Assembly (NCBI GenBank): GCA_964605885.1
Contig: CAZSED010000011.1
Location: 1,073 to 65,072 of the forward strand
Length of the DNA: 64,000 bases
From: an uncultured Dehalococcoidales bacterium
GTDB lineage: Bacteria > Chloroflexota > Dehalococcoidia > GIF9 > UBA5629
Direction of reading: 5' to 3'
The position numbers and the translations under genes were made by a program. Below, piece by piece: positions 5,599 through 59,216 of this stretch; position 1 is the stretch's first letter, and each line of letters begins with the position of its first letter. Under the pieces are notes generated by a model, which did no database searches, was not told where the DNA came from, and saw only the letters and a list, made by a program, of their open reading frames with translations.

Positions 5599-6660
5599 TT
5601 ATGCGAACTGGAAGCGGTTTTCTTCGAAAAGCTTCAGGCAGGCGTCGGCGGCGTCCACATCGTAAAACACGCCCCTGTTGCGGCGTATCTCGGCCAGCGC
5701 CTCATTTATTCCAAGGTTGGCGCGGTAGGGGCGGAAAGAGAACATGGCCTCGACCGTGTCGGCCACGCGTAAAATCCTGGCCTTAAGCAGTATGTCCTCA
5801 CCTTTAAGCCCGCGCGGGTATCCCGTGCCGTCGATATTTTCATGATGCTGGAGCACTATCTGCGCGATCGGCCTGGGAAAATCTATGTTCTTCAGTATGT
5901 CGTAGCCTGTCTGGGGATGCGCCTTTACTATCCCCATCTCCATGGAAGTCAACTTACCTGGTTTGCTGAGTATCTCGGCCGGCACACATATCTTGCCGAT
6001 ATCGTGAAGCACGCCCGCCATCTGCAGGCCCTCGATCTCCTCAGCCGGGCGACCCATCTGCCGGGCTATGGCGCAGGCCAGCTGGGCCACGCGCCGCTGG
6101 TGCCCGGCCGTATAGGGATCACGCATCTCGGTCATGGTAATGATGGCTTCTATGACCCCCGCCAGCGTCTTCCTGACTTCCAGCGTGCGCTGCTGGACCT
6201 TCTCCTCCAGGTAATCGCTGTATTTCTTGAGGTCCTTATCAGCCCTGGTCAGGTCCTCGAAGGACAGTATCTGTTCCCTGGCCTTCTGAATCAGGTCACG
6301 GTCGGCCAGCGCGGTGTGACCGAGCAGCCTGACCAGAAGTATTTCTCTTCCGTCAAGGCTAAGCGCCCCCGCCTCCAGCTCGGTGGTCTTCCCGGTAAGT
6401 TTCTCCTCCCATGGCCCGGACCACAGTATCCAGCCGGCCGGCCCGGTTTTCCAGTGCTCCCTGGCATCCGTAACAAAGCTGCCCAGAAAGGAGAGCTCAT
6501 CATCAGCAGTCAGCTTCAACCTGTTCTTTTTAATGCTGGAAAACAGTTTCAGGAACCAGTCTGGCGGAACGCCCTGGATCTCAAAAGAGCCGTCCTCACA
6601 GCGATAGGTGAGGACGGTGTCCAGTAAAATAAGCAGATCGGTCAGAAGAGATTCATCCAT
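5599..6660 (-). CDS. HD-GYP domain phosphodiesterase with an uncharacterised N-terminal domain (probable c-di-GMP phosphodiesterase).
   Basis: The HD motif is VLHDIGKICVP and the GYP motif is HHENIDGTGYPRGL. I chose the start at M19 (MDESLL), which leaves a 22 nt gap after the GTPase gene. The M1 start at 6714 would overlap the GTPase gene by 32 nt. Confidence 0.8.
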   Translation of the reverse strand: MDESLLTDLLILLDTVLTYRCEDGSFEIQGVPPDWFLKLFSSIKKNRLKLTADDELSFLGSFVTDAREHWKTGPAGWILWSGPWEEKLTGKTTELEAGALSLDGREILLVRLLGHTALADRDLIQKAREQILSFEDLTRADKDLKKYSDYLEEKVQQRTLEVRKTLAGVIEAIITMTEMRDPYTAGHQRRVAQLACAIARQMGRPAEEIEGLQMAGVLHDIGKICVPAEILSKPGKLTSMEMGIVKAHPQTGYDILKNIDFPRPIAQIVLQHHENIDGTGYPRGLKGEDILLKARILRVADTVEAMFSFRPYRANLGINEALAEIRRNRGVFYDVDAADACLKLFEENRFQFA

Positions 6661-6682
6661 CACTGACCCCGCCGGTTGGCGG

Positions 6683-7186
6683 CTATTCGACCAGCTTCCT
6701 GGCCAGCAGCTCAAAGGCGTCGTTCACGCTCTGGCCGGTTTTGGCGCTGGTTTTCATGGTCTCAAACCCGTCCCGCTGCAGCTTTTCAATGGCCGCATCG
6801 TCAATATCCCACTTGCCCTCGAGGTCCCACTTGTTAAAAAGCAGCAGGCAGGGCACCTTGCCCAGTATCTCCTGCGCCATCTTATGCATGTCCATGCCCA
6901 CTTCCAGCGTATTGAGGCGCGTCTTGTCCACAACCAGCAGGTAGCCGGATGCGCCCCTCAAATAGGTCGTGCGCATCTCGCTGATGCCGTTCTTGCCGGC
7001 CAGGTCCCATAACACAAGCTCCACAGCCTTGCTGCCTAGCTGGACGGTCTTTTTATCCACCTTGACCCCGATGGTGGTCTGGTATTTCTCGGAGAACATG
7101 TTCTCCACGTAGCGCCGTATGAGGCTGGTCTTGCCCACGGCAAAGGCCCCCAGCATGCAGACTTTTTTCTTAACGATCTCTGCCAT
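6683..7186 (-). CDS. Ras-like small GTPase (Rab/MglA-like).
   Basis: G1 is GAFAVGKTS, G3 is WDLAG (DxxG), G4 is NKWD and G5 is SAK. I chose the start at MAEIVKKK (ATG 7186..7184). The longer ORF start at 7267 lies inside the upstream gene. Confidence 0.75.
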   Translation of the reverse strand: MAEIVKKKVCMLGAFAVGKTSLIRRYVENMFSEKYQTTIGVKVDKKTVQLGSKAVELVLWDLAGKNGISEMRTTYLRGASGYLLVVDKTRLNTLEVGMDMHKMAQEILGKVPCLLLFNKWDLEGKWDIDDAAIEKLQRDGFETMKTSAKTGQSVNDAFELLARKLVE

Positions 7187-7188
7187 TA

Positions 7189-8211
7189 TTACTTTCCGGC
7201 CACCTGAAAAATAACACTGCCGAGAATTAACAGCAGGCTGATGATGCCTGCGCCTATTATAAGCCATATAAGGTCATGTGCGCTTCTTTTTCTGGCAGGT
7301 TTGGCAGTGGACGCCGGTATTGTCGTTTTGCCGGCCTCGCCGATGCCCCGCTTGGCCTGCATCAGGCATGACTCCAGATGATGCCTGCTCAATGCAAAGG
7401 GTGCCACGTCCCCCTTAAAGTCCTGAAGGCAGTAGCGCTGCTCGAACTCGATCTTTTCCAGCTCCTCCTCCATGTGTGCACGCAGGCTTTCGGGCGGGTT
7501 GCCCCGTATGACTGCCGCCAGGGCTACCTGCGGCCCCTGCTCGACCCATATGGTGTAATCGCCCACGTTCAGGCTCTGCAGCACCTGGTTCTCCGATACG
7601 CCGAAGGAATCGTGGACGAAGTCCTGAATGGCAGTCAGCATGCCGGAGACCATGTCCACGTCCTTGATCCCTTCCTCTGTAGCCGCCACGTGTTGTAGCA
7701 GCAGGCCGGTCTCCCTGTGCACCAGGAACACCTGCTCGACGCTGTAGATCAGCGTGTGCAGCAACACGATCTCGGCAAAAGGTCTGCCGGTCTGGATCGA
7801 CTCGATCCTCCACTTCAGCCCCTGCCATGAAAAGGCATATGACATGGTCTCATTGATCGATTGGACCATGGAGCGGATGGACTCCGAGATGGCCTTCCTG
7901 ATGGCCGGCCCGATTACGGGGAAGATGGCGTCTGCCAGGAACTTGGGGTCTTTCTTTACGGAGTCCTTAATGGTCAGCTCGATGGTCGGCAGCAGCGCCT
8001 GTGCCAGCTTCTTATCTTTGGACGCCCGGATGACGATGGCTTCGGCCAGGACGCGGCTGAGCTCCTCGGCACGGATATCGGGATCGTTCAACCGCTCCTT
8101 CAGCACGGCGATTTCCTGCTGCTCCGGGCTAACCAGCAGCGTACGCAGATTGACCAGCTCATCGTCCAGAGCGCCGTGCATGCCCTGTTTTTTTTCACTG
8201 GCTTCCGTCAT
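7189..8211 (-). CDS. Membrane-anchored protein with a Roadblock/LC7-like (MglB-like) domain and an N-terminal coiled coil.
   Basis: The segment VHRETGLLLQHVAATEEGIKDVDMVSGMLTAIQDFVHDSFG...VGDYTIWVEQGPQVALAAVIRG has a roadblock-like alternation. A C-terminal TM helix is present (LIWLIIGAGIISLLLILGSVIF). Its stop lies 2 nt before the GTPase start. Confidence 0.5.
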   Translation of the reverse strand: MTEASEKKQGMHGALDDELVNLRTLLVSPEQQEIAVLKERLNDPDIRAEELSRVLAEAIVIRASKDKKLAQALLPTIELTIKDSVKKDPKFLADAIFPVIGPAIRKAISESIRSMVQSINETMSYAFSWQGLKWRIESIQTGRPFAEIVLLHTLIYSVEQVFLVHRETGLLLQHVAATEEGIKDVDMVSGMLTAIQDFVHDSFGVSENQVLQSLNVGDYTIWVEQGPQVALAAVIRGNPPESLRAHMEEELEKIEFEQRYCLQDFKGDVAPFALSRHHLESCLMQAKRGIGEAGKTTIPASTAKPARKRSAHDLIWLIIGAGIISLLLILGSVIFQVAGK

Positions 8212-8221
8212 GTTTGTACCC

Positions 8222-8695
8222 TCACCACGATGAAGTGTGGTGGTGGCTGATCTTCATCATTTCCTCAAAAAGCTTGGAGACGGCGTTCTTGTCGGCCTTG
8301 GCACGCCTTATCTCCTCCGCGTCGCTGTTGAATTTTTTAAGCAGCTCTTCGAGTTTTTTAGCCGTCTCCTGGCTGAGATCGGATATGTTCTGGGTCAGCA
8401 GGTCCTCCAGGCGGGCTAGCCTCCTGTCATACTCATCCCTTATAGCGCCCATCTTCTCAGTCATCTCGTTGCTCAGGGCGGTCATGTTCTTGACCAGTAG
8501 CTCCTCCAGGCGGTTGAACCTCCTGTCATACTCCTCCCTCTGGGCGCCGAAAAGAATCTCCCTTACCTGGTCCACACCGCCAGGGCTGGCCGAAGCGGCT
8601 ATACTCTCATCATGTGCTACCGTGCCGCCCCGCCCGGCCCCAGCTTTCTCTCCCCCCTTGCTGCGGGTCGTTTTCGTCTCATCAGTGGCCCCCAT
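8222..8695 (-). CDS. Coiled-coil protein with two 33-residue tandem repeats.
   Basis: EEYDRRFNRLEELLVKNMTALSNEMTEKM and DEYDRRLARLEDLLTQNISDLSQETAKKL are direct repeats that mirror the 98-99 nt DNA repeat. The N-terminus is low-complexity Gly/Ala-rich. It is the first gene of a tightly packed four-gene minus-strand operon. Confidence 0.5.
   Translation of the reverse strand: MGATDETKTTRSKGGEKAGAGRGGTVAHDESIAASASPGGVDQVREILFGAQREEYDRRFNRLEELLVKNMTALSNEMTEKMGAIRDEYDRRLARLEDLLTQNISDLSQETAKKLEELLKKFNSDAEEIRRAKADKNAVSKLFEEMMKISHHHTSSW
8403..8600. repeat. Tandem direct DNA repeat of about 98 nt (2 copies) inside the coiled-coil gene.
   Basis: tcctccaggcgggctagcctcctgtcatactcatccct at 8403 recurs as ctcctccaggcggttgaacctcctgtcatactcctccct at 8501. 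Confidence 0.7.
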
Positions 8696-8799
8696 AACAT
8701 GACCTCCTCTGTTATCGATACCCGGACCTGGCCCGAAAACGGAAATTTCTGATATGCGAACGTATCTGTTTAATTTACTATATTAAGTCCAGTCTACGC

Positions 8800-8818
8800 T
8801 GACAGATTATTACTGTCA
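8800..8818. promoter_or_regulatory. Inverted repeat TGACAG-N7-CTGTCA overlapping a -35-like TTGACA (minus strand) upstream of the GTPase operon; candidate operator or promoter.
   Basis: Minus-strand reading is TTGACAGtaataatCTGTCAgcgTAGACT. The operon start codon at 8695 lies about 100 nt away. Confidence 0.35.
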
Positions 8819-8865
8819 ACGCTCTCCCCGTATAGGTCCACCGGACATGTAGTACCGGTCGGCCG

Positions 8866-15180: not shown

Positions 15181-17181
15181 CTAGAGCCCGGCCAGGTGGG
15201 CCGCCTGGTATACCAGCACGGCCATAGCGAAGGACAGCACGAGCTGAAAGGCCACCGAGAAGGCCGGCCATTTCCAGCCGCCGGTCTCGTGCCTCATAGC
15301 CGCCACGGTGGCGGCACAGGGGATAAACAGCACCTGGAAGACCAGGAAGGCCACGGCGGCAGCAGGAGTAAGCAACTGCCTGAGCTGCTGCGTGAAATCC
15401 ACGCCATGCCCGCCCAGCAGCACGCCCAGCGTGGCTATGGTATTCTCCTTGGCAACAAAGCTTGAGAGCAGCGCCACCATCATCTGCCAGTTCAGTCCCA
15501 TCAGCCCGCCTGCCGGCTCGAACCACCTGCCCACGTTGGCCAGGAAGCTGTCGTCTATCCTGCCGTTGGGCAGGATGGCCAGCAGCCAGACCGTTAGCGA
15601 CACCAGCAGTATTATCGTCCCGGCGCGCTTGATAAATGCCAGTGTGTTCTGCCAGGTCACCAGGCCCACCAGGCGCATGTCCGGCACGTGGTATAAAGGC
15701 AGCTCCATGATCAGTGCTTCGCTCTCGCCTCGAATGACAAATTTATTCAGAATCATGCCGATGATCACCAGCATCAGCAGGCTGAAGACGATGATGCCCA
15801 TGGAGACCAGCACGGCCTGGCTGCCGAAGAAGGCTGCAGCGATTATGGCCACCACCGCCATACGGCCGGTGCAAGGGACCAGGGGCGTAATCAATATCGT
15901 CAGCAGGCGGGCACGCGGGGAATCTATAATTCGGGTACCCAGCACGGCAGGAACGTTGCAGCCAAACCCCAGCACCAGCGGCAGACATGATTTCCCGTGG
16001 AGCCCGAGCAGGTGCATGAACCTGTCGGTGACGAAGGCCGCACGGGCTGTATAGCCCACATCTTCCATAAGTGCCCAGAAAATAAAGAAAAGCATCAGAA
16101 TGGGAATAAATGTCAGCACCAGGCCGACACCGCTGAGCAGCCCGTCCGCCAGGAAGCTCTGGAACCAGGCCGGTGTAAAGGCCAGGCTGCTGTAGACCAG
16201 CTCCTGCCCCCTTTCAATCAAGTTAACTTCAAGGAATTTTTGAATGGGGATGCCGATGCTGTAAACCAGCCCGAACATCAGGCTGAGCACCAGCAGCAGT
16301 ATGATAATTCCGCTCACCGGGTGCGTGGCCGCCCTGTCGATCCTCTCTGTAAGGGAGACGCGACCGATATGTGGCTTCTCCTGGGCTGCCGCCGCCATCC
16401 TTGCCACCCACTCATAACGCAGCGTGGCAATTTCCATGGCCGCCGACTCATTCTGTTTAAGATAAGAGTCCAGCTTGGGCCAGCGGTCCGGCGGGTAACG
16501 CAGCCTGATTAGCCTGTTGATCTGTTCATCGCCCTCCAGCAGCTTCATGGCCGCCCAGTGCTGCGAATAAGGTGAGGCCACTTCAGTGTTGAGCATCCCG
16601 GCCACGCGGTCTATTACCCGCAGCATATCGCTGCCATACTCTATATGCCTGATCTCTCGCCAGCCGGCAGGACGCAGGCACTCCTGCTCGATCTGTGCCA
16701 CCAACTCGTTTACGCCCCGGTTCTTGTTGGCCACGATGGGCACCACCGGTATGTTCAGGGCGGAGGCCAGCGCCTCTGCATCTATCTTTATGCCCTGCTG
16801 GCGGGCCACGTCCATCATGTTCAATGCCACCACCAGGCGCGGCGCCAATTCGATCAGCTCGGCAACTAAATATAAATTTCTTTCCAGGCTGGCGGCGTTC
16901 AGCACTGCCACCACAACATCAGGGCTCTCGTTAACCAGGTAGTCCCTGGCAATCTGCTCCTCGACCGAATTGGCCGTCAGGCTGTAGGTGCCGGGCAGGT
17001 CGACTATGTTCATGGTCAAGTTGCCGCGCCTCAGCACGCCGGTCTTTTGCTCGACTGTTTTTCCCGGCCAGTTGCCCACATGCTGCGAAAGGCCGGTCAG
17101 CAGGTTGAACACCGTGCTCTTGCCCACATTGGGAGCGCCGGCCAGTGCAACAACTATCGTCCTTTCTTCAGGCTGCTGCAT
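15181..17181 (-). CDS. feoB: Ferrous iron transporter FeoB.
   Basis: N-terminal G-domain VALAGAPNVGKSTVFNLLTG and DLPGTYSL, followed by a polytopic membrane domain. Length 666 aa. Confidence 0.9.
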   Translation of the reverse strand: MQQPEERTIVVALAGAPNVGKSTVFNLLTGLSQHVGNWPGKTVEQKTGVLRRGNLTMNIVDLPGTYSLTANSVEEQIARDYLVNESPDVVVAVLNAASLERNLYLVAELIELAPRLVVALNMMDVARQQGIKIDAEALASALNIPVVPIVANKNRGVNELVAQIEQECLRPAGWREIRHIEYGSDMLRVIDRVAGMLNTEVASPYSQHWAAMKLLEGDEQINRLIRLRYPPDRWPKLDSYLKQNESAAMEIATLRYEWVARMAAAAQEKPHIGRVSLTERIDRAATHPVSGIIILLLVLSLMFGLVYSIGIPIQKFLEVNLIERGQELVYSSLAFTPAWFQSFLADGLLSGVGLVLTFIPILMLFFIFWALMEDVGYTARAAFVTDRFMHLLGLHGKSCLPLVLGFGCNVPAVLGTRIIDSPRARLLTILITPLVPCTGRMAVVAIIAAAFFGSQAVLVSMGIIVFSLLMLVIIGMILNKFVIRGESEALIMELPLYHVPDMRLVGLVTWQNTLAFIKRAGTIILLVSLTVWLLAILPNGRIDDSFLANVGRWFEPAGGLMGLNWQMMVALLSSFVAKENTIATLGVLLGGHGVDFTQQLRQLLTPAAAVAFLVFQVLFIPCAATVAAMRHETGGWKWPAFSVAFQLVLSFAMAVLVYQAAHLAGL

Positions 17182-17183
17182 AG

Positions 17184-18086
17184 TTATGTATTCATCTGCA
17201 CCAGTATTTTTTCAGCTACGCCCCGGCCCAGGGCAACTTCCGTGTCATGAAGCTTGACCAGTATCGGGCCGCCGCCGAAGTTCTCCAGCATCCTGACAGT
17301 GCTGCCTGGCGTGAAGCCCAGCGACAGGCAGCGTCCCAGTGCATGCCTGCCGCCACCACAGTGACTTATGATTGCTGAATGCCCGCCGGGCAGCTTGCTC
17401 AGCGGCATTTCTTTGGCCTTCACCCCACCAGCCGCTGCAGCGGGCTTCGCCAGCAGCGAACCGGCGACCCCGGCGGGTACGGCAACCTCCCTGCCGTTAG
17501 CTTCGACTGTAATCGTACCGTCCCTGTCCTTTCTCAACACTTTCACACATGTGCCCGGCGTCAATCCCAGCCTGGCAACCTGCCGTAAGAACCTGGCATC
17601 CTCGTTGTCGATAGCCGATATGCAGGCTTCCTGCCGTGGCTGAAATCCGGACAGTGCTAAGCTATTCTCATCCTTGATCTTGCCATTGCGGTCCGGAATT
17701 GAGTGGCCGTGCGGGCAGGTATCCACGTCACCCAGCACATTCTCCAGGCCCTCCTCAATGCCGGGCGATGTAACATGCTCCAGCTTGCAGGCTTCCTCAT
17801 GCACCTTGTCCCATTTCATGCCCAGCACGTCGGTCAGGAACCTCTCCCACAGCCGGTGCCTGCGTATGACCTGCATCGCCTGCTGCCTGCCCAGGACAGT
17901 CAGACTGGCTCCCCGGCCGGCCCGGTATTTGACCAGCCCCTTGCCCTCCAGCGTACGCAGCATATCGGTCACAGCCGGCGCCGACACCTTGAGGTCCTCC
18001 GCCAGCAGCGAGGTCGCAACAAGCCTGTCCTTCTTCTGTCTCTTGTATATAGCCTCCAGGTATTCCTGGGTCCTTTCGCTTTCCAT
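17184..18086 (-). CDS. DtxR/IdeR-family metal-dependent repressor fused to two C-terminal FeoA/SH3-like domains.
   Basis: N-terminal HTH and dimerisation region (YLEAIYKRQKK...MLRTLEGKGLV...RRHRLWERFLTDVLGM). Two FeoA-like segments follow (GTCVKVLRKDRDGTITVEANGREVAV and GSTVRMLENFGGGPILVKLHDTEVAL). Its stop abuts the feoB start (2 nt gap). Confidence 0.75.
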   Translation of the reverse strand: MESERTQEYLEAIYKRQKKDRLVATSLLAEDLKVSAPAVTDMLRTLEGKGLVKYRAGRGASLTVLGRQQAMQVIRRHRLWERFLTDVLGMKWDKVHEEACKLEHVTSPGIEEGLENVLGDVDTCPHGHSIPDRNGKIKDENSLALSGFQPRQEACISAIDNEDARFLRQVARLGLTPGTCVKVLRKDRDGTITVEANGREVAVPAGVAGSLLAKPAAAAGGVKAKEMPLSKLPGGHSAIISHCGGGRHALGRCLSLGFTPGSTVRMLENFGGGPILVKLHDTEVALGRGVAEKILVQMNT

Positions 18087-44421: not shown

Positions 44422-46308
44422 CTAGAGATTTAACCTCAGATAATACAAGCCTTCACCGCTGCTGACTATCTTGAAGCCGGCTTTCTCAAATATGGAGAGC
44501 ATGGGCATGTTCTCATACAATACCTCGGCCACAAAGGCCAGCAGGCCATTTTTTTTACCAAGGTAAATAAGGTACTGTAAAAGCTCGCTGCCGATGCCCT
44601 GTCTCTGATAGTTATCCCGGACGGCAAAGGCCACCTCGGCGCTGTGGACGTCCTGGCCGATGCCGTACTGCCCGATGCCCAGTATCTTTTCGTTTTCCTC
44701 CTCTCCCTCGGTGGCCAGTATCACCATCTCCTGCGTGTAGTCGATGACCACGAACTCCTGCAGGCGCTCGTGCGGCATGTCCTTCCTGCTGGAGATGAAC
44801 CTGCGGTAGAGGCTTTGATCGGAAAGCGCGTAGAAGAAGTCCTTGACCAGGGGCTCGTCGCTTATCTTGACCGGCCTGAAAAGGACTTCCTTCCCGCTTT
44901 TCATACGGCGGACGGACTCCAGGTTCTCCGGATACTCACCCCGCTTACCCGGCACGAAGGCCTGGTCGCGGTATATCAGGTTCAGCTTCTTGGCCTCCTC
45001 GATCAGCCAGGGCCGGAACTTGGGATGCGCGATGGAGATAAGCTCCATGGCGCGCTCGCGTATGTTCTTGCCGTGCAGGTAGGCGATGCCGTACTCCGAG
45101 ATAACGTAATGTATATCCCCACGCACCATAGTCACGCCCGAGCCCTCGTTAAGGAAGGGGACAATCCTTGACACCGTATCGTCCTGGGCGGTGGACTGGA
45201 TGGTGAGTATGGTTTTGCCGTTATGCGCCAGTATGGCGCCGCGCATAAAATCCGCCTGGCCGCCCACACCGCTGTAAAAGGTCTTGCCCAGCGATTCGGC
45301 CGTGGCCTGGCCGGTCAGGTCTATCTCCAGCGCGCTGTTGATAGCCACCATGTTCTCATGGCGGGCTATAACCAGCGGGTTGTTGGTGTACTCTATCGTC
45401 CTGAATTCCACCGAGGGGTTGTCATTGATGAATTCATAGGTCTCTTTCCTGCCCATGCAGAACGTCGCCACAGTCTTGCCCCTGTCGACCTTTTTGCTGG
45501 AATTATCTATTACTCCCTGTTTCATCAGCTCCGCAATGGCATCGGACATCAACTCCGTGTGCACGCCCAGGTGCTTCTTGGCGGAGAGGCTCATTAATAT
45601 GGAGTTCAACCGGCTGCCATAGCCCACCTGGATGGTATCGCCGTCCTGGATTAGGCGTGAGACGTAGGAGCCGATCTTAGAAGCCACCTCATCGTTGACA
45701 GGAGAGTCGAACTCGAGTACCGGCTCATCATGCCGCACCAGGTAATCGATGCCGTCTATGTGCAGAAATCCGTCCCCGTGCACGCGCGGCATGTTGGCAT
45801 TGATCTGGGCGATTACCAGATCGGCTTTTTCAACCGCGGCGTTGACGATGTCCACGCTGATGCCCAGGCTAACGTACCCGTGGTGGTCGGGCAGGGAGGT
45901 TTGTATCAGGGCCACGTCCACAGGCACTATACCGCGCTGAAACAGCTCCGGCACCTGGGAAAGAAAGATAGGGGTGTAGTCAGCCAGGCCGGCATTTACC
46001 GCGGAGCGCGTGTTGTCGCCTATAAAGAAGGAATTGTGCCTGAAATTGGATTTGAATTTTTCCTGCGTATAGGCCGCCACGCCCAGCGTCCAGACCTGCA
46101 GCACTTCTGCATCGAAAAAGGCCTTGGGATTTGATTCCACGTAGTTGACCAGTGCATTCACCAGGTACTGGGGCTCGGCGCAGGCCGTGCTGATGAATAT
46201 GCGGCTTCCGGGATGGATCCTGCCGAATATTTCTTTCTCCGGGGCGAATTTCTGTGGATACCTGTCCTTCAGATTATCAAGTTCCGATTCACCGGGTTTA
46301 TCACCCAT
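44422..46308 (-). CDS. Fusion protein of a family-I CoA-transferase (acetyl-CoA hydrolase/transferase, 4-hydroxybutyrate CoA-transferase-like) and a C-terminal GNAT acetyltransferase domain.
   Basis: CoA-transferase C-domain signature SGVGGQADFMRGA. C-terminal GNAT motif A is RQGIGSELLQYLIYLGKKNG, with ENMPMLSIFEKAGFKI. Total length 628 aa. Confidence 0.7.
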   Translation of the reverse strand: MGDKPGESELDNLKDRYPQKFAPEKEIFGRIHPGSRIFISTACAEPQYLVNALVNYVESNPKAFFDAEVLQVWTLGVAAYTQEKFKSNFRHNSFFIGDNTRSAVNAGLADYTPIFLSQVPELFQRGIVPVDVALIQTSLPDHHGYVSLGISVDIVNAAVEKADLVIAQINANMPRVHGDGFLHIDGIDYLVRHDEPVLEFDSPVNDEVASKIGSYVSRLIQDGDTIQVGYGSRLNSILMSLSAKKHLGVHTELMSDAIAELMKQGVIDNSSKKVDRGKTVATFCMGRKETYEFINDNPSVEFRTIEYTNNPLVIARHENMVAINSALEIDLTGQATAESLGKTFYSGVGGQADFMRGAILAHNGKTILTIQSTAQDDTVSRIVPFLNEGSGVTMVRGDIHYVISEYGIAYLHGKNIRERAMELISIAHPKFRPWLIEEAKKLNLIYRDQAFVPGKRGEYPENLESVRRMKSGKEVLFRPVKISDEPLVKDFFYALSDQSLYRRFISSRKDMPHERLQEFVVIDYTQEMVILATEGEEENEKILGIGQYGIGQDVHSAEVAFAVRDNYQRQGIGSELLQYLIYLGKKNGLLAFVAEVLYENMPMLSIFEKAGFKIVSSGEGLYYLRLNL

Positions 46309-52105: not shown

Positions 52106-55100
52106 GTGCCTAAGATAACCTCTATTGAAGATTTAAATAAACTTAAGAAAGCCGTCGAACCCAGGCTGAAGATCCGCGCGGATGCGGATTTTGGCCATTT
52201 CAAGGGCACCCCGGAGATCTGCATCCAGCAGTGCAGGGGCATGGGCTGCACCGCAGCCGGGGGCGATAAGGTGACCGAAAAATTTGAAGAGCTGATCGCT
52301 AAGAAGGGCATCGGCGGCAAGGTCAATATAGTCAGGACCGGCTGCCTCGGCCCCTGCGAGATGGGCCCGACTGTGATCGTCAACCCCGGTGACATCCTTT
52401 ACGTCAGGGTCAAGCCCGAAGATGTGCAGGAAATCTTTGAGAAGCATATTTTAAACGGCCAGATCGTGGAGCGCCTTGTCTATCACGACCCCACCACCAA
52501 TGAGGCTGTGCCCGAACGGCTTAAGATCAACTTCCTGGCCGACCAGGAGTTCCGCATCCTGCATAACAACGGCATCATCGACCCCTGGAACATCGAAGAG
52601 TACATAGCCCGCGGCGGCTATGAAGCGCTGGCCAGGGCCCTGTATAAGATGAAGCCGGAGGACGTCCTGGAAGAGGTCAAGAAGTCCGGCCTTCGCGGCA
52701 GGGGCGGTGCAGGCTTCCCCACGGCCACCAAGTGGGGCTTCCTCAAAAGCTCGCCCGGCACGGTCAAATACCTGGTCTGCAACGGCGACGAGGGAGACCC
52801 CGGCGCATATATGAACCGTGCGGTGCTGGAAGGCAACCCCCATTCAATAATAGAAGGTATGGCTCTGGGCGCTTACGCCGTGGGCAACGTCAGCCAGGGC
52901 TTCGCCTATATACGTGCCGAGTACCCGCTGGCCATCGAAACACTCAGCGCGGCCATCGCTCAAGCCCGTGAGTACGGGCTGCTCGGCAAAAACATACTGG
53001 GCACCGATTTTCAATTCAACCTGGACATTTTCCCCGGCGCGGGAGCTTTCGTCTGCGGCGAGGAGACGGCTCTGCTCATCTCTATCGAGGGCAAGCGCGG
53101 CATGCCGCGGCAGAGGCCCCCCTTCCCCTCGGATAAGGGCCTTTTTGGCAAGCCCACGGCCATCAACAACGTGGAAACCTGGTCCATAGTTCCCAGGATC
53201 ATTCGTGAGGGCGCAGACTGGTTCGCCTCTGTGGGCAGCGATAAGAGCAAGGGCACCAAGTCCTTCAGCCTGGTAGGCAAGGTCAATAACGTCGGCCTGG
53301 TCGAGGTGCCGCTGGGCACCAGCCTGGGCAAGATAGTATTCGATATCGGCGGCGGCGTGCCCAAGGGCAAGAGGTACAAGGCCACCCAGATGGGCGGCCC
53401 CTCGGGCGGCGTCATACCCATAGAACACGTCAACGTGCCGGTCGACTACGAGTCCGTCACGGCGCTGGGCGCCATTATGGGCTCGGGCGGCCTGGTCGTC
53501 ATGGACGAGGACAACTGCATGGTGGACATCGCCAAGATGTTCCTGGGCTTCACCAGGGACGAGTCCTGCGGCAAATGTGTCCCCTGCCGTGCCGGCATAC
53601 CTAAGCTGCTCTCAATACTGAACAAGATCACCAGCGGCCAGGGCACCATGGAGGACCTGGATATCCTGCAGGAACTTTCGGAGATGATCCAGAGTTGCTC
53701 CATCTGCGGCCTGGGCCAGACGGCCCCCAACCCGGCTGTGTCTACGCTGAGGCACTTCAGGGAAGAGTATGAAAGCCACATCATCGACAAGCACTGCCCG
53801 GCCTCGCTCTGCCAGGCTCTGTTCCGCGCACCCTGTCAGCATACCTGCCCGGTAGGCCTGGATGTGCCCGGCTATATGGCGCTGACCAAGGAAGGCAGGC
53901 CGGCTGACGCCTACAAGCTCATCAGCCAGAGGCTGCCGCTTCCCATGACGGTAGGCCGCGTCTGCCCTCATCCCTGCGAGAAGAAATGCCGCAGGGGCCA
54001 GGTGGACGAACCCATCGCCATCAGGCATATAAAGAGGTATGTATCGGACTTTGCCTGGGAGCACAACCTCTCCTACGTGCCTGAGATCAAGGGCTCGAAG
54101 GCTGAGAAAGTGGCCATAATCGGCGCAGGGCCGGCGGGGCTCTCCGCAGCCTGGGACCTGGCAGTCGAGGGCTACAAGGTAACCATCTTCGAGGCCCTGC
54201 CTGTGGCGGGCGGCATGCTGGCCGTGGGCATACCTGAGTACAGGCTCCCCAAGGACGTACTGAATAAGGAAATCGATAATATTAAGAAGCTGGGCATCGA
54301 GATCAAGCTCAACAGCCCGGTCAAGGACATAGATTCACTCTTCAAGGACGGCTACAAGGCCGTGTTCGTGGCCATCGGCGCCCACAAGGGCGACAAGATG
54401 GGCATACCCGGCGAGGAGCTGTCAGGCGTCTATGACGCCATAGACTTCCTGCGGAATATAAACCTTGGCAAAGAAATCTCCATCCGAAGCAAGGTTGCCG
54501 TCATCGGCGGCGGCAACTCGGCTATCGACGCCGCCAGGGTGGCGGTTCGCAAGGGCGCCAAGGAAGTGCACATAGTATACCGCCGCGAAAAAGTGGATAT
54601 GCCTGCTGAAGAGGAAGAGATTGCAGCAGCCGAGGAAGAGGGCGTGAAGCTCCACGTCCTGGCCGCGCCGGTCAAGGTGATCGGCAAGGACGGCAAGGTG
54701 TCTGCTATTGAATGCGCACGCATGGCGCTCGGAGAGTTCGACAGGAGCGGCAGGCGTTCACCCAAGCCCATACAGGGCTCAGAGTTTACCCTTGAAGTGG
54801 ACATGCTGATCGAGGCCATCGGCCAGAGGCCGGACACCGCCTCAATGAACCTGGGCGGCGCCAAGACCGGCAAGGGCGGAACGCTGGTTGCCGATAAACG
54901 GACGCTGGCCACAGAGCAGAAGGGGGTCTTCGTCGGCGGTGACGCCTTTACCGGCCCCTGGACAGTTATTGAGGCCATCGCATCCGGCCAGAGGGCTGCC
55001 TCATCCATCAAACGCTTCCTGAGCGGTAAAGAGCTCGGTCCCAGGGTCGACCGCAAGGATCCCGAGACCATCGAATACAACCATATCGCCCCCACTGACG

Positions 55101-55246
55101 AAGAGACCAGCCCGCACCCAAGGGTTGCAATGAAGGAAATACCGCTGGCCGAGAGGAAGTCTACGTTCAAGGAAGCCGTGGTCAACTTCACCGCCAAGGA
55201 AGCCAAGGAAGAATGCACCCGATGCCTGCGATGCGATATCGGATAG
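52106..55246 (+). CDS. NuoF/HoxF-like NAD(P)H-binding flavoprotein with an N-terminal extra [2Fe-2S] thioredoxin-like domain, fused to a C-terminal GltD/NfnB-like FAD/NAD(P)H oxidoreductase module.
   Basis: N-terminal CRGMGC...CLGPCEMGP (2Fe-2S). NuoF FMN and NADH site GLRGRGGAGFPTATKWGF. N3 cluster ESCGKCVPCRAG...CSICGLGQTA. This is followed by two GltD-type [4Fe-4S] Cys clusters (CQHTCPVG, CPHPCEKKC) and dinucleotide folds VAIIGAGPAGLSAAWDLA and VAVIGGGNSAIDAA. GTG start at 52106 with AGGAGG 8 nt upstream. Length 1046 aa. Confidence 0.85.
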   Translation: MPKITSIEDLNKLKKAVEPRLKIRADADFGHFKGTPEICIQQCRGMGCTAAGGDKVTEKFEELIAKKGIGGKVNIVRTGCLGPCEMGPTVIVNPGDILYVRVKPEDVQEIFEKHILNGQIVERLVYHDPTTNEAVPERLKINFLADQEFRILHNNGIIDPWNIEEYIARGGYEALARALYKMKPEDVLEEVKKSGLRGRGGAGFPTATKWGFLKSSPGTVKYLVCNGDEGDPGAYMNRAVLEGNPHSIIEGMALGAYAVGNVSQGFAYIRAEYPLAIETLSAAIAQAREYGLLGKNILGTDFQFNLDIFPGAGAFVCGEETALLISIEGKRGMPRQRPPFPSDKGLFGKPTAINNVETWSIVPRIIREGADWFASVGSDKSKGTKSFSLVGKVNNVGLVEVPLGTSLGKIVFDIGGGVPKGKRYKATQMGGPSGGVIPIEHVNVPVDYESVTALGAIMGSGGLVVMDEDNCMVDIAKMFLGFTRDESCGKCVPCRAGIPKLLSILNKITSGQGTMEDLDILQELSEMIQSCSICGLGQTAPNPAVSTLRHFREEYESHIIDKHCPASLCQALFRAPCQHTCPVGLDVPGYMALTKEGRPADAYKLISQRLPLPMTVGRVCPHPCEKKCRRGQVDEPIAIRHIKRYVSDFAWEHNLSYVPEIKGSKAEKVAIIGAGPAGLSAAWDLAVEGYKVTIFEALPVAGGMLAVGIPEYRLPKDVLNKEIDNIKKLGIEIKLNSPVKDIDSLFKDGYKAVFVAIGAHKGDKMGIPGEELSGVYDAIDFLRNINLGKEISIRSKVAVIGGGNSAIDAARVAVRKGAKEVHIVYRREKVDMPAEEEEIAAAEEEGVKLHVLAAPVKVIGKDGKVSAIECARMALGEFDRSGRRSPKPIQGSEFTLEVDMLIEAIGQRPDTASMNLGGAKTGKGGTLVADKRTLATEQKGVFVGGDAFTGPWTVIEAIASGQRAASSIKRFLSGKELGPRVDRKDPETIEYNHIAPTDEETSPHPRVAMKEIPLAERKSTFKEAVVNFTAKEAKEECTRCLRCDIG

Positions 55247-55259
55247 GAGATAAGGCAAA

Positions 55260-57221
55260 ATGAGTGAAATAACATTAACCATTAATGGAAAACAGGTCAA
55301 AGGCAACCAGGGCGATACCATCCTGGATATCTGCACGGCCAACGGCATAGACATACCCACTCTATGCCACCATAAAGGCCTGACCGACGTTGCCGCCTGC
55401 AGGCTCTGCCTGGTCGAGATCGAGAAGGAAAGGGGCCCCAGGCCCGCCTGTACCTATCCGGCACGCGACGGCCTGGTGATAAATACCAGCAGCGAAAAAC
55501 TGGAAAAGTACCGCCGACTGATACTGGAGTTGCTCTTCACGGAGAGGAACCACCTGTGCGCTTACTGCGTCGCCAGCGGCGATTGCGAGCTGCAGAGCAT
55601 GGCCTACCGCTACCAGATGGACAGCACGCGCTACCAGTACTCCTGGCCCAACGTTATAGTCGATTCTTCCCATCCCTACGTGGTAATGGACCACAACAGA
55701 TGCATACTGTGCGGCAGGTGCATCAGGACCTGTGACGAGATCACAGGCGCCCACGCACTGGACTTTGGCAAGCGCGGCTGGAAGACCATGGTCTGCGCCG
55801 ATATCAACCAGCCCCTGGGCGAGTCCTCTTGCATCTCCTGCGGCGGCTGCTTTCAGGCATGCCCCACAGGAGCAATCTTCTCCAAGGGAAGCGCCTACAA
55901 GGGAAGGCCGGATGAATGCCAGGCCGTTGAATCGACCTGCGCCATCTGCGGCATTGGCTGCGACATCAAGGGGCTGGTCAAGGACAATAAGGTCGTCAGG
56001 ATAGACAGCCCGGACATGACCAGGCCGCGCGGCCTGCTGTGCGATATGGGACGTTTCGGACCGTTGTATAAAGCTGCGGAGAGGATCACGACCCCCATGA
56101 AGAAAAACACCAAGGGCCAGCTGGTTGATTGCACTTATGATGAAGCTTTCGAGGCCATCGCCAAGAAGCTCGGCGGCCTTTCAAGCATGGCCGGCCTGGC
56201 TTCCAGCAAAGCCAGCACGGAGGCCCTCAAGGCTTTCGCGGACTTAATGACCAGGACACTGAACAGCAAAATGGTCGATACCCTGGACGGGGATGATTTC
56301 AGGACCATTTCTGCAGCGACCGCCCAGGCTGGCGGCGACGGCAACCTGAAAATGGAGGCCAAGCTCGAGGATATCCTGATCGCGGACTGCATTCTGGTCA
56401 TCGGGGCACATCCCATCAAGACACACCCGGTGATCGGCTCATATATTATGCGCGCCGCTACCAAGAACAAGGCACAACTGGTCGTTCTTGACCCGTTGCG
56501 CAATCCCTTCACCTTCCGCGCCACCGCCTGGCTGAAGCCGGCCGAGGGCAAGGAAGGACTGACCATCAAGGCCCTGGGCAATGCCATCCTGGATCACGGC
56601 CTAGCCAAGACCGCCGGCGATAAGAACAAGTTTGGAGCCGAGTTCAAGGAGGTCGAAGCCAAGAAGGCCGCCAAGGACCTGGGAATCGACGTCCATGATA
56701 TTTATAAGTCGGCCGAGGCTCTGGCCGAGGCCAAGAACGTCGTCATCATTTACGGCAACGGCATTCTGCAGTATAAGAACCCTGACCTGGTGACCACCAT
56801 ACTGAACCTGGCCGGACTGGTCAGCAGCAAACCCAGGGTCATCTCATTGAAGAGGAACGGCAACAGCCGGGGCGCCTGGGAGATGGGAATCAGCAATGTT
56901 AAAAGCTCGGTCATGGCCGAGGTAGCCAAAGGAAAGGCCAAGGGGCTGTACCTGCTGCTGGCTGACGACATGGCCGACTCGCAGGCGCTGGCTGACAGCC
57001 TGAAAGGGCTGGACTTCCTGGTTGTGCAGGCCAGCTACCAGTCGCCGGTTACGGCCAAAGCCAACGTGGTGCTGCCCTCTTTGCTGTGGACTGAGGCAAA
57101 AGGCAGCTATACCACACTGGACGGCATAAGCAAGTCCACCAGACCCATGGTCAAGTCCATGGCGGAGATAAAAGATGACGCGGCAACCCTGAAAGAGGTT
57201 GCCGGGCATCTGAAGAAATAA
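55260..57221 (+). CDS. NuoG/formate-dehydrogenase-alpha-like Fe-S subunit, N-terminal cluster modules plus a partial molybdopterin-oxidoreductase fold.
   Basis: [2Fe-2S] CHHKGLTDVAACRLC; His-ligated [4Fe-4S] CAYCVASGDCELQ; two ferredoxin-type clusters CILCGRCIRTC and CISCGGCFQACP; the MopB Fe4S4 domain CAICGIGCDIKGL. At 653 aa it is too short for a complete catalytic FdhA. Confidence 0.8.
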   Translation: MSEITLTINGKQVKGNQGDTILDICTANGIDIPTLCHHKGLTDVAACRLCLVEIEKERGPRPACTYPARDGLVINTSSEKLEKYRRLILELLFTERNHLCAYCVASGDCELQSMAYRYQMDSTRYQYSWPNVIVDSSHPYVVMDHNRCILCGRCIRTCDEITGAHALDFGKRGWKTMVCADINQPLGESSCISCGGCFQACPTGAIFSKGSAYKGRPDECQAVESTCAICGIGCDIKGLVKDNKVVRIDSPDMTRPRGLLCDMGRFGPLYKAAERITTPMKKNTKGQLVDCTYDEAFEAIAKKLGGLSSMAGLASSKASTEALKAFADLMTRTLNSKMVDTLDGDDFRTISAATAQAGGDGNLKMEAKLEDILIADCILVIGAHPIKTHPVIGSYIMRAATKNKAQLVVLDPLRNPFTFRATAWLKPAEGKEGLTIKALGNAILDHGLAKTAGDKNKFGAEFKEVEAKKAAKDLGIDVHDIYKSAEALAEAKNVVIIYGNGILQYKNPDLVTTILNLAGLVSSKPRVISLKRNGNSRGAWEMGISNVKSSVMAEVAKGKAKGLYLLLADDMADSQALADSLKGLDFLVVQASYQSPVTAKANVVLPSLLWTEAKGSYTTLDGISKSTRPMVKSMAEIKDDAATLKEVAGHLKK

Positions 57222-57241
57222 ATGCCCCAAGGAGTGATCAG

Positions 57242-57778
57242 ATGGCTAAAGTAAAAGTTGCTACCGTGTGGTTGGAAGCGTGCTCAGGATGTCACATGTC
57301 CTTCCTGGACATCGATGAGTTTATTATCGACGTGTCCAAGCTGGTCGAGTTTCACAGGAGCCCGATAACAGATATCAAGAAATTCACTCCCGTAGATGTG
57401 GGCATTGTCGAAGGCTCTGTCGGCAACGAGGAAGAGAAAGAGATCATCGAAGAGCTGCGCCATAACTGCAAGATATTGATGGCCTGGGGCGACTGCGCCT
57501 GCTTCGGCGGCGTCTGCGCTATGCGCAGCTCCCTGGACAAGGACGAGGTGCTCAAATACGGTTACATCGACACCGCCAGCACCTACAAGGGCAAGATACC
57601 TCAATCTCCCGGCGTGCCGGCCCTGCTGGATAAGGTTTATCCGGCCAACCAGATAGTTAAAGTTGATTGCTATGTGCCCGGTTGTCCTCCGGAGCCTGAG
57701 GCTATCAAGTACGCCTTGACGGAGCTGCTGGCAGGCAGAATACCCATCCTGCCCAGCAACATTATGCGCTTTGATTAA
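57242..57778 (+). CDS. hoxY: [NiFe]-hydrogenase small subunit (group 3, HoxY/MvhG-like, NuoB fold).
   Basis: Proximal-cluster Cys pattern CSGC...GDCACFGG...CPPEP. AAGGAG RBS. Length 178 aa. Confidence 0.85.
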   Translation: MAKVKVATVWLEACSGCHMSFLDIDEFIIDVSKLVEFHRSPITDIKKFTPVDVGIVEGSVGNEEEKEIIEELRHNCKILMAWGDCACFGGVCAMRSSLDKDEVLKYGYIDTASTYKGKIPQSPGVPALLDKVYPANQIVKVDCYVPGCPPEPEAIKYALTELLAGRIPILPSNIMRFD

Positions 57779-57788
57779 GAGGTGAAAA

Positions 57789-59216
57789 ATGACAGGCAAG
57801 ATAATTGAAATCAACCCCGTTACCAGGGTGGAAGGACACGGCAAGGTCACCATCCAGCTGGATGAGGCCGGCGATGTCGCTTCGGCCAGGTTTCACAATA
57901 CCCAGTTCCGCGGCTTTGAAAGATTCTGCCAGGGGCAGGTCTTCTGGGAGATGCCAAACATTACGACACGCATCTGCGGCATCTGCCCGGTCAGTCACCA
58001 ACTGGCATCGGCCAAGGCCTGCGATGCTATACTCGGCGTAGAGCTGACGCGCCCAGGTAAGCTGTTAAGGGAATTACTGCACCAGGCCCAGTATATACAG
58101 TCCCATGCGCTGCACTTTTTCCACCTGGCCAGCCCGGATTTTTTACTGGGCTTTGATTCCAATCCCGCTACCAGGAATGTTATCGGGCTTATAGGAGCGG
58201 ATCCTGGACTGGCAACCGAGGCGGTCAAGCTGCGTAGCTTTGGCCAGACTATAATTAAAAAGCTGGGCGGCAAAAAGATCCACATGAACGCAGCTTGTCC
58301 CGGCGGGATGACAACTGCCCTTAAGGTTGAAGACAGGGATGCTTTCCTCAAACAGATTGATTGGGCCATTGGAGATGCCCAGCTGGCCGTAAAAATTTTT
58401 AAAGACTACGTGGGCAAAAACCAGGCTATGGTCGACACCTTTGCCACATTCCCCTCCGCCTATATGGGCATGGTCGACGAAAACAACAACCTCGCCCTGT
58501 ATGATGGCAACCTCAGGCTGATTGATTCCAAGGGTGTTGTACTGGAAGAGCAGTTCAACCCGGCGAAATACCTTGATATCATAGCCGAACACGTAGAAGA
58601 CTGGTCATATATGAAATTCCCCTTCTATAAGAGCCTCGGCTACCCGGGCGGCATCTACCGCGCCGGACCGTTGGGCCGCCTCAATGTCTGCAACGGCATC
58701 ACTACACCGCTGGCCAATGCTGAGCTTAAAAACTTCAAGAAACTGAGCAAATTCGGTTTTGTCGAGGGCTCCATGTATTTCCATTATGCACGTCTGATCG
58801 AGCTCATCTACTGCATCGAAAGAGCACGTGAGATACTGGAGGATAAGGACGTTACATCCACAGATCTGCAGGTTAATTCGACCAAATACAATGAGCATGG
58901 AGTCGGCGTTGTAGAGGCGCCAAGGGGAACCCTCTTCCATGACTACTGGGTAGACGAGACAGGTAAAATCACCGGGGTCAATCTTATCGTAGCCACAGGC
59001 AATAATAATGCGGCCATGAACCGCTCTGTGTACGAAGTTGCCCGGGACTACATCAAGAAGGGCAACGTCACCGAGGGCATCCTCAACAGGGTCGAAGTCG
59101 CCATACGCTGCTATGATCCCTGCCTTTCATGCTCCACGCACGCGCTGGGCCAGATGCCCCTGCTGATACAGCTCCGCTCGCCTGAGGGTGAGATAGTCAA
59201 GGAAATCTACAGCTAG
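57789..59216 (+). CDS. hoxH: [NiFe]-hydrogenase large subunit (group 3, HoxH-like).
   Basis: N-terminal Ni-binding motif [11 protein letters not shown]-terminal DPCLSCSTH followed by a 24-residue tail typical of endopeptidase-processed large subunits. Confidence 0.9.

Follow-up and report, generated by a model that had tools for sequence, protein, structure and literature searches.

A Group 1 Rup-type GTPase cassette with an HD-GYP output in a Dehalococcoidales bacterium, with predicted folds for two of its components

Four genes on the minus strand of a 64,000-nucleotide stretch of DNA from an uncultured Dehalococcoidales bacterium (GenBank assembly GCA_964605885.1, contig CAZSED010000011.1, positions 1,073 to 65,072) encode a helical-repeat protein (DUFY), a membrane protein (DUFX), a small GTPase (Rup) and an output protein with an HD-GYP domain. 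The whole stretch is called the window here, and coordinates without a locus label are window positions. Judged by gene order and protein families, the four genes are a Group 1 Rup system. Such four-gene Rup cassettes are already known: they were described computationally in 2015 by Wuichet and Sogaard-Andersen as the "Group 1 Rup" neighbourhood (Genome Biol Evol, PMC4316618). An earlier analysis of the letters alone, the sequence-only reading, had not recognised the genes as a described system; the 2015 paper does describe it. New here are the core of DUFX, which is predicted to adopt the longin/Roadblock superfold, a predicted PAS-like domain in the output protein, and copies of the cassette in Dehalococcoidia whose DUFX has no OmpA domain.

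In Table S2 of PMC4316618 the neighbourhood is written DUFY>DUFX(:OmpA)>Rup>output, and Group 1 has 27 entries. As the passages on Group 1 describe them, the parts are a cytoplasmic coiled-coil protein; a protein with a conserved unknown domain, after which a membrane helix and OmpA often come; a Rup GTPase in which the glutamine of G3 is missing; and an output protein with an invariant glutamine in its N-terminal region. The output is "typically" a GGDEF/EAL protein or a histidine kinase, and includes proteins linked to cyclic di-GMP (c-di-GMP). Table S2 gives DUFX without OmpA for Chloroflexi and Bacteroidetes. In the passages on Rup, the family is kept separate from MglA, and its genes are not coupled to MglB homologues. 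In later literature Rup1, as the Group 1 proteins are also called, is found only as a phylogenetic reference group. It is the bacterial group that clusters with eukaryotic Rab, Ras, Rho and Ran and with Asgard RasL.

The cassette of the window is placed in Group 1 because of its gene order, a GTPase that lacks the G3 glutamine, the likeness of its DUFX, and an output protein whose N-terminal domain bears a glutamine. Indirect support comes from syntenic homologues in Nostoc and Nitrospira, lineages that are listed as Group 1 in PMC4316618.

Conservation of the cassette

A scan for relatives of DUFX in a one-genome-per-species collection matched at least 587 stretches from about ten phyla. These include Chloroflexota, Acidobacteriota, Cyanobacteria, Nitrospirota, Planctomycetota, Desulfobacterota, Gammaproteobacteria, Latescibacterota and others. 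The cassette is far commoner than the 27 Group 1 entries of the 2015 table.

Synteny was counted in the best 80 of these at least 587 loci, which again span about ten phyla, and each denominator is the number of loci with room for the gene in question. Upstream of DUFX, the neighbouring gene is a DUFY homologue in 71 of 75 loci. Rup homologues are present in 71 of 73, and in 67 loci the gene follows DUFX directly in the same orientation. The output protein's N-terminal domain is encoded in 40 of 64, and all four parts occur together in 36 of 61. Order and strand are kept across phyla, and the counts support the four genes as a functional unit of co-inherited families, as the sequence-only reading had supposed.

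The outputs encoded in syntenic loci are histidine kinases (21), HD-GYP proteins (6), sigma-54 activators (4) and SpoIIE proteins (3). Cassettes with HD-GYP recur in several lineages: Dehalococcoidia (L007-L009, L085), a gammaproteobacterium (L023), two deltaproteobacterial lineages (L030, L064) and an OmpA-bearing organism (L086). The link that had been proposed between a GTPase module and an HD-GYP output is real and is seen elsewhere as well. Full-length orthologues of the output protein, 45-71% identical to it, sit in the same cassette. The locus of the window is thus unexceptional within the family, and its output is one of the less common ones.

Gene content can be seen to vary in individual loci. 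In a Coleofasciculaceae cyanobacterium (L060, 2594-4643 and 7184-11570) two DUFX-Rup pairs lie about 3 kb apart, and DUFY and N-terminal-domain genes were detected only at the second pair. Locus L038 has a single DUFX with two Rup paralogues downstream. A few kb or less beyond the cassettes of the Dehalococcoidia type, another HD-GYP protein is encoded, which does not carry the Rup-associated domain. In L085 (6100-7638) it is an SBP_bac_3-HD_5 protein of 512 residues. In L007 (11579-13813), L008 (13299-15170) and L009 (6168-8408) the corresponding open reading frames (ORFs) have 623-746 residues.

The four proteins

More than 4000 homologues of DUFX were found. Those from metagenome-assembled genomes of Dehalococcoidia and Dehalococcoidales are about 340 residues long. 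The rest are "OmpA family proteins" of about 590 residues, which share the cytoplasmic region at about 50-56% identity and continue with a transmembrane helix, a periplasmic region and an OmpA domain (PF00691). Between DUFX of the window and the OmpA-fused homologues of Nostoc, Nitrospira, Acidobacteriota and others, identity is 45-56%. The membrane anchor named by the sequence-only reading is found as a C-terminal helix (best 19-residue Kyte-Doolittle window 2.7) with one residue after it. Because there is a single hydrophobic helix at the C-terminus with almost nothing behind it, DUFX is predicted to be tail-anchored. In six loci from Desulfomonilaceae/Desulfomonile (L044, L050, L052, L053, L055, L082) the DUFX ORFs reach 720-858 residues, compared with about 590. 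The long form may have an enlarged periplasmic part, or the ORFs may be partly over-extended.

The fold of DUFX was predicted with AlphaFold2 from 79 sequences (predicted local distance difference test, pLDDT, 79). The model has an N-terminal helical region, within which the motif FPVIGPAIRKAI is near-invariant. Residues F97, P98, R105, I108, W134, R135 and E137 of this region are invariant in the 79 sequences. It is followed by a domain with the topology alpha, beta-beta-alpha-beta-beta-beta, alpha-alpha, for which pLDDT is mostly 78-98. Here E159, Q160, H165 and H174 are invariant, and conservation peaks in beta1-beta2 and helix alpha1.

When the core was compared with the Protein Data Bank (PDB) using Foldseek, nearly all matches were longin or Roadblock proteins (E 4e-5 to 4e-3). 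They include AP sigma, Mon1-Ccz1, zeta-COP, Bet5/Trs23 of TRAPP, the longin domain of Sec22b and Fuzzy-Inturned, and also Rag C-terminal domains, Ego3, dynein LC7 and MglB. Template modelling (TM) scores are 0.72 for Sec22b and 0.68 for AP sigma; MglB (3t12_B) ranks 46th with E 3.7e-3 and TM 0.48. Sequence identity to the structural matches is just 7-17%. DUFX has no match in Pfam or NCBIfam even at E<=1, and so none to Robl_LC7 (PF03259), and a profile of its longin-like domain found no Roadblock or longin protein among all PDB sequences. Because no match was obtained at the sequence level in Pfam, NCBIfam or the PDB profile search, the resemblance to longin domains is one of fold only. The core of DUFX is predicted to have the longin/Roadblock superfold, to lie on the cytoplasmic side and to be nearer to longin than to MglB. 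The sequence-only reading had suggested a Roadblock/LC7-like centre for this protein, and the model bears this out at the level of the superfold. Almost all of the proteins that DUFX matches are platforms, exchange factors or GTPase-activating proteins (GAPs) for small GTPases.

The GTPase is a single-domain protein of Rab/Ras-like type, not of MglA type, with profile matches to Pfam Ras (2.4e-31) and Roc (6e-24). Its G1-G5 motifs are canonical and eukaryote-like. All of the motifs named by the sequence-only reading are present: G1 (GAFAVGKTS), G3 (WDLAG), G4 (NKWD) and G5 (SAK), together with T38 of switch I as G2. Its nearest solved relatives are Rab7L1, Rab21, Sec4 and Rab8, and also a Thorarchaeota Rab; MglA is absent from the best 60 PDB matches listed. 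The residue after DxxG is lysine (WDLAGK), so that the catalytic glutamine is missing. In 75 syntenic orthologues this position is E in 44, A in 10, T in 6 and others in the remainder, and is not predominantly Q. The residue equivalent to G12 of Ras is F here and F or Y in 69 of the 75. The G1-G5 residues are otherwise essentially invariant across these orthologues. Among the 94 domain-bearing proteins described below, no fusion of Rup to DUFX or to the output N-terminal domain was found.

Relatives of the output N-terminal domain were collected by an exhaustive HMMER search with the first ~130 residues, which gave 364 cluster representatives at E<=1e-3. S81 is invariant. At least 90% conserved are P33, W35, F58, F62, A66, W70, G82 and W84, and likewise E86, E96, A97, A99, L108, Q125 and R128. 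For Q125, conservation reaches 92% when 164 domain sequences are compared, and it is at least 90% in alignments A3 and A4; the residue is a candidate for the output-protein glutamine described in PMC4316618.

The sequence-only reading had left this domain uncharacterised and proposed a structure prediction for it. The AlphaFold2 model (110 sequences, pLDDT 85, predicted TM score 0.75) shows a helix, two strands, helices, three strands and a long C-terminal helix. All of the top structural matches are LOV/PAS domains, and they are weak (E 1e-3 to 2e-2, TM 0.4-0.5). Pfam gives no PAS match. In the model Q125 is located in the exiting C-terminal helix (116-133, pLDDT 66-73), not in a loop. The domain is tentatively predicted to be PAS-like and to end in a signalling helix.

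Of 94 representatives, 71 carry the domain fused to HATPase_c (histidine kinase), 9 to HD-GYP, 3 to SpoIIE and 2 to GGDEF-EAL, and additional PAS, REC or Hpt domains are frequent. One N-terminal domain on many outputs is the pattern expected of a receiver for a common upstream signal. A stand-alone form of about 146-164 residues lies upstream of DUFY in four Acidobacteriota/Thermoanaerobaculia loci (L010 6834-7274, L011 6831-7277, L014 6752-7228, L016 6773-7267). The existence of this form suggests that the domain is a core subunit of the module, not a mere sensor appendage.

The HD-GYP domain is complete. The HD_5 match (4.5e-42) scores 144 bits, where the curated cut-off is 27.2, and H187, H221-D222, H248, H272-H273, D277, the GYP residues 280-282 and D301 are intact. 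Its closest solved relatives are V-cGAP3 (5z7c, 3.7e-39) and then PmGH (4mcw, 2e-32). By this similarity, the substrate may be c-di-GMP or possibly 3'3'-cyclic GMP-AMP (3'3'-cGAMP).

DUFY contains the two 33-residue repeats that the sequence-only reading had noticed. They are identical at 16 of 33 positions in register. In a sliding self-comparison, identity peaks at 18/33 at offset 33, and every other offset gives at most 9/33. Each repeat can be read as three units of 11 residues, in which the spacing of hydrophobic positions is about 3.67 residues. Relatives have 3-4 repeats (for example, L006 3681-4292), compared with 2 here. The family consensus includes an N-terminal motif, KiRdILFGxQ..RFxRLE, and a C-terminal one, KtDRxxLaxlFtE. 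The only Pfam match is a weak, sub-threshold one to apolipoproteins (A1/A4/E). Because of the 33-residue (3 x 11) repeats and this sub-threshold match, DUFY may not be a classical heptad coiled coil but a helix protein of hendecad type or an amphipathic, membrane-binding one.

How the parts may work together

From these observed parts and their observed conservation, the following wiring can be inferred. DUFX would tether Rup at the membrane, where its longin-like domain would set the nucleotide state of the GTPase. This action would preferably be GEF-like (GEF, guanine nucleotide exchange factor), as in the eukaryotic longin Rab-GEFs, and could also be GAP-like. The PAS-like domain of the output protein would read Rup-GTP. 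Via the linker helix, it would then switch the hydrolysis of c-di-GMP, or possibly of 3'3'-cGAMP, by HD-GYP. DUFY would be a scaffold or a membrane-associated partner. In diderms, DUFX has an additional periplasmic OmpA-like domain. The Dehalococcoidia copies have lost this cell-wall-binding domain and should therefore have no extracytoplasmic input, so that in this lineage input would have to be cytoplasmic or intramembrane. Peptidoglycan has been reported absent from cultured Dehalococcoidia, with which the loss of OmpA fits. A Group 1 Rup cassette with a nucleotide state set by DUFX, PAS-like readout of Rup-GTP and switching of HD-GYP has about an even chance of being the correct description.

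Several points weigh against it. Signalling might run from Rup to the output, from the output domain to Rup as its GAP, or from a ligand to the PAS-like domain. Lacking the glutamine and carrying a bulky residue at the G12 position, Rup might be unable to cycle. In 24 of 64 loci with room, no N-terminal-domain protein is nearby. The fold calls come from AlphaFold2 models and Foldseek matches with E of 1e-5 to 1e-3, without support at the sequence level. V-cGAP3, the closest solved HD-GYP protein, is specific for 3'3'-cGAMP, and the c-di-GMP enzyme PmGH comes behind it. Finally, no experimental work on Rup1, DUFX or DUFY was found in the literature searched.

The model of Wuichet and Sogaard-Andersen assigns a different role to the N-terminal domain of the output and is otherwise largely compatible with the wiring above. 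In their model this domain is a GAP that supplies a glutamine, here Q125, to Rup in trans; DUFX would be an upstream membrane sensor or exchange factor, and HD-GYP activity would be coupled to GTP hydrolysis. The absence of the G3 glutamine from Group 1 Rup and the high conservation of Q125 both speak for such a mechanism. There is also precedent: TBC RabGAPs and RapGAP are established cases of a GAP that provides a glutamine or asparagine in trans. Against this, Q125 occupies a position typical of a signalling helix in the predicted structure, not an exposed finger loop, and it is not strictly invariant. PAS-like folds are not known as GAPs, and the invariant Q160, R105 and R135 of DUFX could equally serve. 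A glutamine donated by the output protein is therefore judged unlikely. The GTPase might instead not cycle. Rnd and RhoH are constitutively GTP-bound and are substituted at the G12 and Q61 positions, and F or Y at the first position and no Q at the second are conserved across the 75 orthologues. A permanently GTP-bound Rup would have a structural role as one subunit of a complex at the membrane, together with DUFY, DUFX and the output, and the signal would enter via DUFX or via the PAS-like domain, whose conserved polar and aromatic cluster (S81, W84, E86, E96) could bind a ligand. Yet all G motifs are strictly kept, including the switch I threonine and the DxxG glycine, as in a working gamma-phosphate sensor, and the conservation of a longin-like partner points to a regulated nucleotide state. 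An adaptor of this kind is distinctly unlikely.

The sequence-only reading had seen in the GTPase and DUFX the same pairing as MglA and MglB. DUFX would then be an MglB-like Roadblock GAP, and a spatial polarity switch would place or time the degradation of c-di-GMP. MglB, Ego3, Rag C-terminal domains and dynein LC7 are among the structural matches of DUFX, and a membrane anchor could localise the module. MglB works with the catalytic glutamine of MglA itself, a residue that Rup does not have. In addition, the GTPase is outside the MglA family, DUFX has no Robl_LC7 match or other sequence similarity to Roadblock/LC7 proteins, and longin domains outscore MglB in the structural comparison. Rup genes are also not coupled to MglB homologues in the Rup passages of PMC4316618. 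The pairing had to be given up in its original form, and a switch of this type is very improbable. As for four unrelated, tightly packed genes that are adjacent by chance, general genome compactness alone could be cited for them. Order and strand are kept in Chloroflexota, Cyanobacteria, Acidobacteriota, Nitrospirota, Planctomycetota and Proteobacteria, and the synteny counts exclude this explanation, leaving it a negligible probability.

The favoured wiring, with DUFX setting the state of Rup, can be extended. DUFX would be a true longin regulator, most plausibly an exchange factor. Rup1 and DUFX would then be a bacterial counterpart, possibly even a homologue, of a Rab with its longin GEF (Mon1-Ccz1, TRAPP), wired to second-messenger turnover. 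This extension is tentative and rather doubtful. If DUFX does contain a longin/Roadblock-type domain, the 2015 statement that Rup GTPases are not coupled to MglB homologues would need to be qualified. If it is a longin regulator, Group 1 Rup would, contrary to the 2015 classification, no longer be a family without a Roadblock/longin partner.

The locus leaves the kinds of known system unchanged. It gives testable roles to two components that were formerly blank: DUFX as a longin/Roadblock-type platform, and the PAS-like domain as a receiver on many outputs. The outputs of the cassette span kinases, HD-GYP and GGDEF-EAL proteins, sigma-54 activators and PP2C phosphatases. If DUFX regulates Rup, the cassette would offer bacteria a general route by which a small GTPase feeds into two-component and cyclic-dinucleotide signalling.

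Gene layout and surroundings

The four ORFs lie head to tail, as the sequence-only reading had described, with intergenic gaps of 10, 2 and 22 nucleotides. The same four products are found in gene calls on three independent metagenome contigs with identical DNA. The choice of start codons is backed by relatives: GTPases have 164-168 residues, and the output N-terminal domain begins at residue 1-3 in most proteins. Coordinates are collected in Table 1.

Table 1. Positions of the cassette genes, their domains and a candidate promoter in the window
Feature	Coordinates	Strand	Description or basis
DUFY, first cassette gene	8222..8695	-	157 aa cytoplasmic helical-repeat ("coiled-coil") protein
Two tandem 33-residue repeats in DUFY (residues 53-85, 86-118)	8342..8539	-	Self-comparison
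DUFX, second gene	7189..8211	-	340 aa tail-anchored membrane protein (predicted), OmpA-less form
DUFX N-terminal helical region (residues 13-141)	7789..8175	-	Five helices in model
DUFX longin/Roadblock-superfold domain (residues 145-295), predicted	7327..7779	-	AlphaFold2 and Foldseek
DUFX C-terminal transmembrane helix (residues 311-339)	7195..7281	-	Model helix and hydropathy
Rup (Group 1, "Rup1") small GTPase	6683..7186	-	167 aa from internal ATG; Pfam Ras
Output protein	5599..6660	-	353 aa from ATG 6660; N-terminal domain, helical linker and HD-GYP
PAS-like N-terminal domain (residues 1-133), predicted	6262..6660	-	AlphaFold2 and conservation; Q125 in C-terminal helix
HD-GYP catalytic domain (residues 173-335)	5656..6144	-	HD_5
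Sigma-70-like promoter match	8791..8819	-	TTGACA-17-TAGACT, 10/12, ~95 nt upstream of first gene

The promoter match lies inside a gap of 170 nucleotides between an acyl-CoA dehydrogenase gene and DUFY. The region contains 3 sigma-70-like sites, compared with 2.1 expected by chance, and the site is a consensus match only. Its position fits a separate transcription unit for the cassette.

A terminator-like hairpin can be drawn at 6590-6617 on the minus strand, within the first 25 codons of the HD-GYP gene. It has a 10 bp stem with 7 G-C pairs and is followed by CTCTTTTGAG. It may be a chance structure or a regulatory one that lies between the GTPase and output genes.

The window is ordinary chromosome, with genes for UvrA, UvrC, LepA, PEP synthase, acetyl-CoA synthetase and FeoAB and a cluster of NuoF/G-like and NiFe hydrogenase genes. 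No second copy of any cassette component was found elsewhere in the window. A role in anti-phage defence was considered and rejected: PADLOC has no match for DUFX or Rup, and for DUFY and the output protein it gives weak coiled-coil and generic HD matches only.

Three other loci contain fusions. At 15181-18086 (minus strand) a 300-residue protein joins a DtxR-type iron-dependent repressor to a C-terminal FeoA domain, and its gene lies directly upstream of FeoB (666 residues). At 44422-46308 (minus strand) an acetyl-CoA hydrolase/transferase carries a C-terminal GNAT acetyltransferase domain in a fusion of 628 residues. The cluster at 52106-59216 (plus strand) has three genes. The first encodes a protein of 1046 residues with NuoE-like, NuoF-like and pyridine-nucleotide-disulphide oxidoreductase parts, the second a NuoG-like molybdopterin protein, and the third the large subunit of a NiFe hydrogenase. 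Clusters of Nuo-like and NiFe hydrogenase genes are typical of anaerobic Chloroflexota.

Comparison with known systems

The closest system is the Group 1 Rup neighbourhood itself, with which the cassette shares the order DUFY, DUFX, a Rup without the G3 glutamine and an output with a glutamine-bearing N-terminal region. Compared with the Group 1 text of 2015, the output here is an HD-GYP protein, not a GGDEF/EAL protein or a histidine kinase. The host is of Dehalococcoidia type, outside the 2015 genome set, and the Group 1 passages of the paper give no fold for DUFX or for the output N-terminal domain.

MglA/MglB of Myxococcus xanthus and Thermus thermophilus is similar in that a Ras-superfamily GTPase stands beside an alpha/beta sandwich protein of the Roadblock/longin superfold. 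The GTPase family is different, being Rup without the catalytic glutamine. Unlike MglB, DUFX has a membrane anchor and a large helical region at its N-terminus; it is predicted to be nearer to longin and shows no sequence similarity to MglB.

The conservon (CvnA-D of actinobacteria, Mfp of mycobacteria) is also a cassette of four or five genes and likewise unites a protein for membrane signalling with one of Roadblock fold, a small GTPase and an accessory protein. For the Rup cassette the analogy goes back to the authors of the 2015 paper (PMC4316618). The conservon, in contrast, has a GTPase of the MglA family (Group 2), a genuine Robl_LC7 protein, DUF742 and the histidine-kinase-like CvnA, so that families are common to the two only at the superfamily or fold level.

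Another comparison is with E. coli RdcA, which with RdcB activates DgcE (PMC13463826). There a GTPase physically controls a c-di-GMP enzyme, as Rup would in the cassette. That GTPase is dynamin-like and not Ras-like, the enzyme is a cyclase and not an HD-GYP phosphodiesterase, and the accessory proteins are unrelated to those of the cassette.

HD-GYP proteins of the RpfG type or linked to PAS domains (PmGH, 4mcw; V-cGAP3, 5z7c) share with the output protein an intact HD-GYP domain, an N-terminal sensory domain and a helical linker. The regulatory domain differs, since in the window it is a Rup-associated module, predicted to be PAS-like, and not a receiver, a classical PAS or a GAF domain.

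The eukaryotic longin Rab GEFs and adaptors (Mon1-Ccz1, Bet5/Trs23 of TRAPP, Fuzzy-Inturned, AP sigma) provide the best structural matches of DUFX, and in both cases the GTPase is Rab-like. DUFX is a single membrane protein with 7-17% identity to them, and the likeness may reflect homology or convergence.

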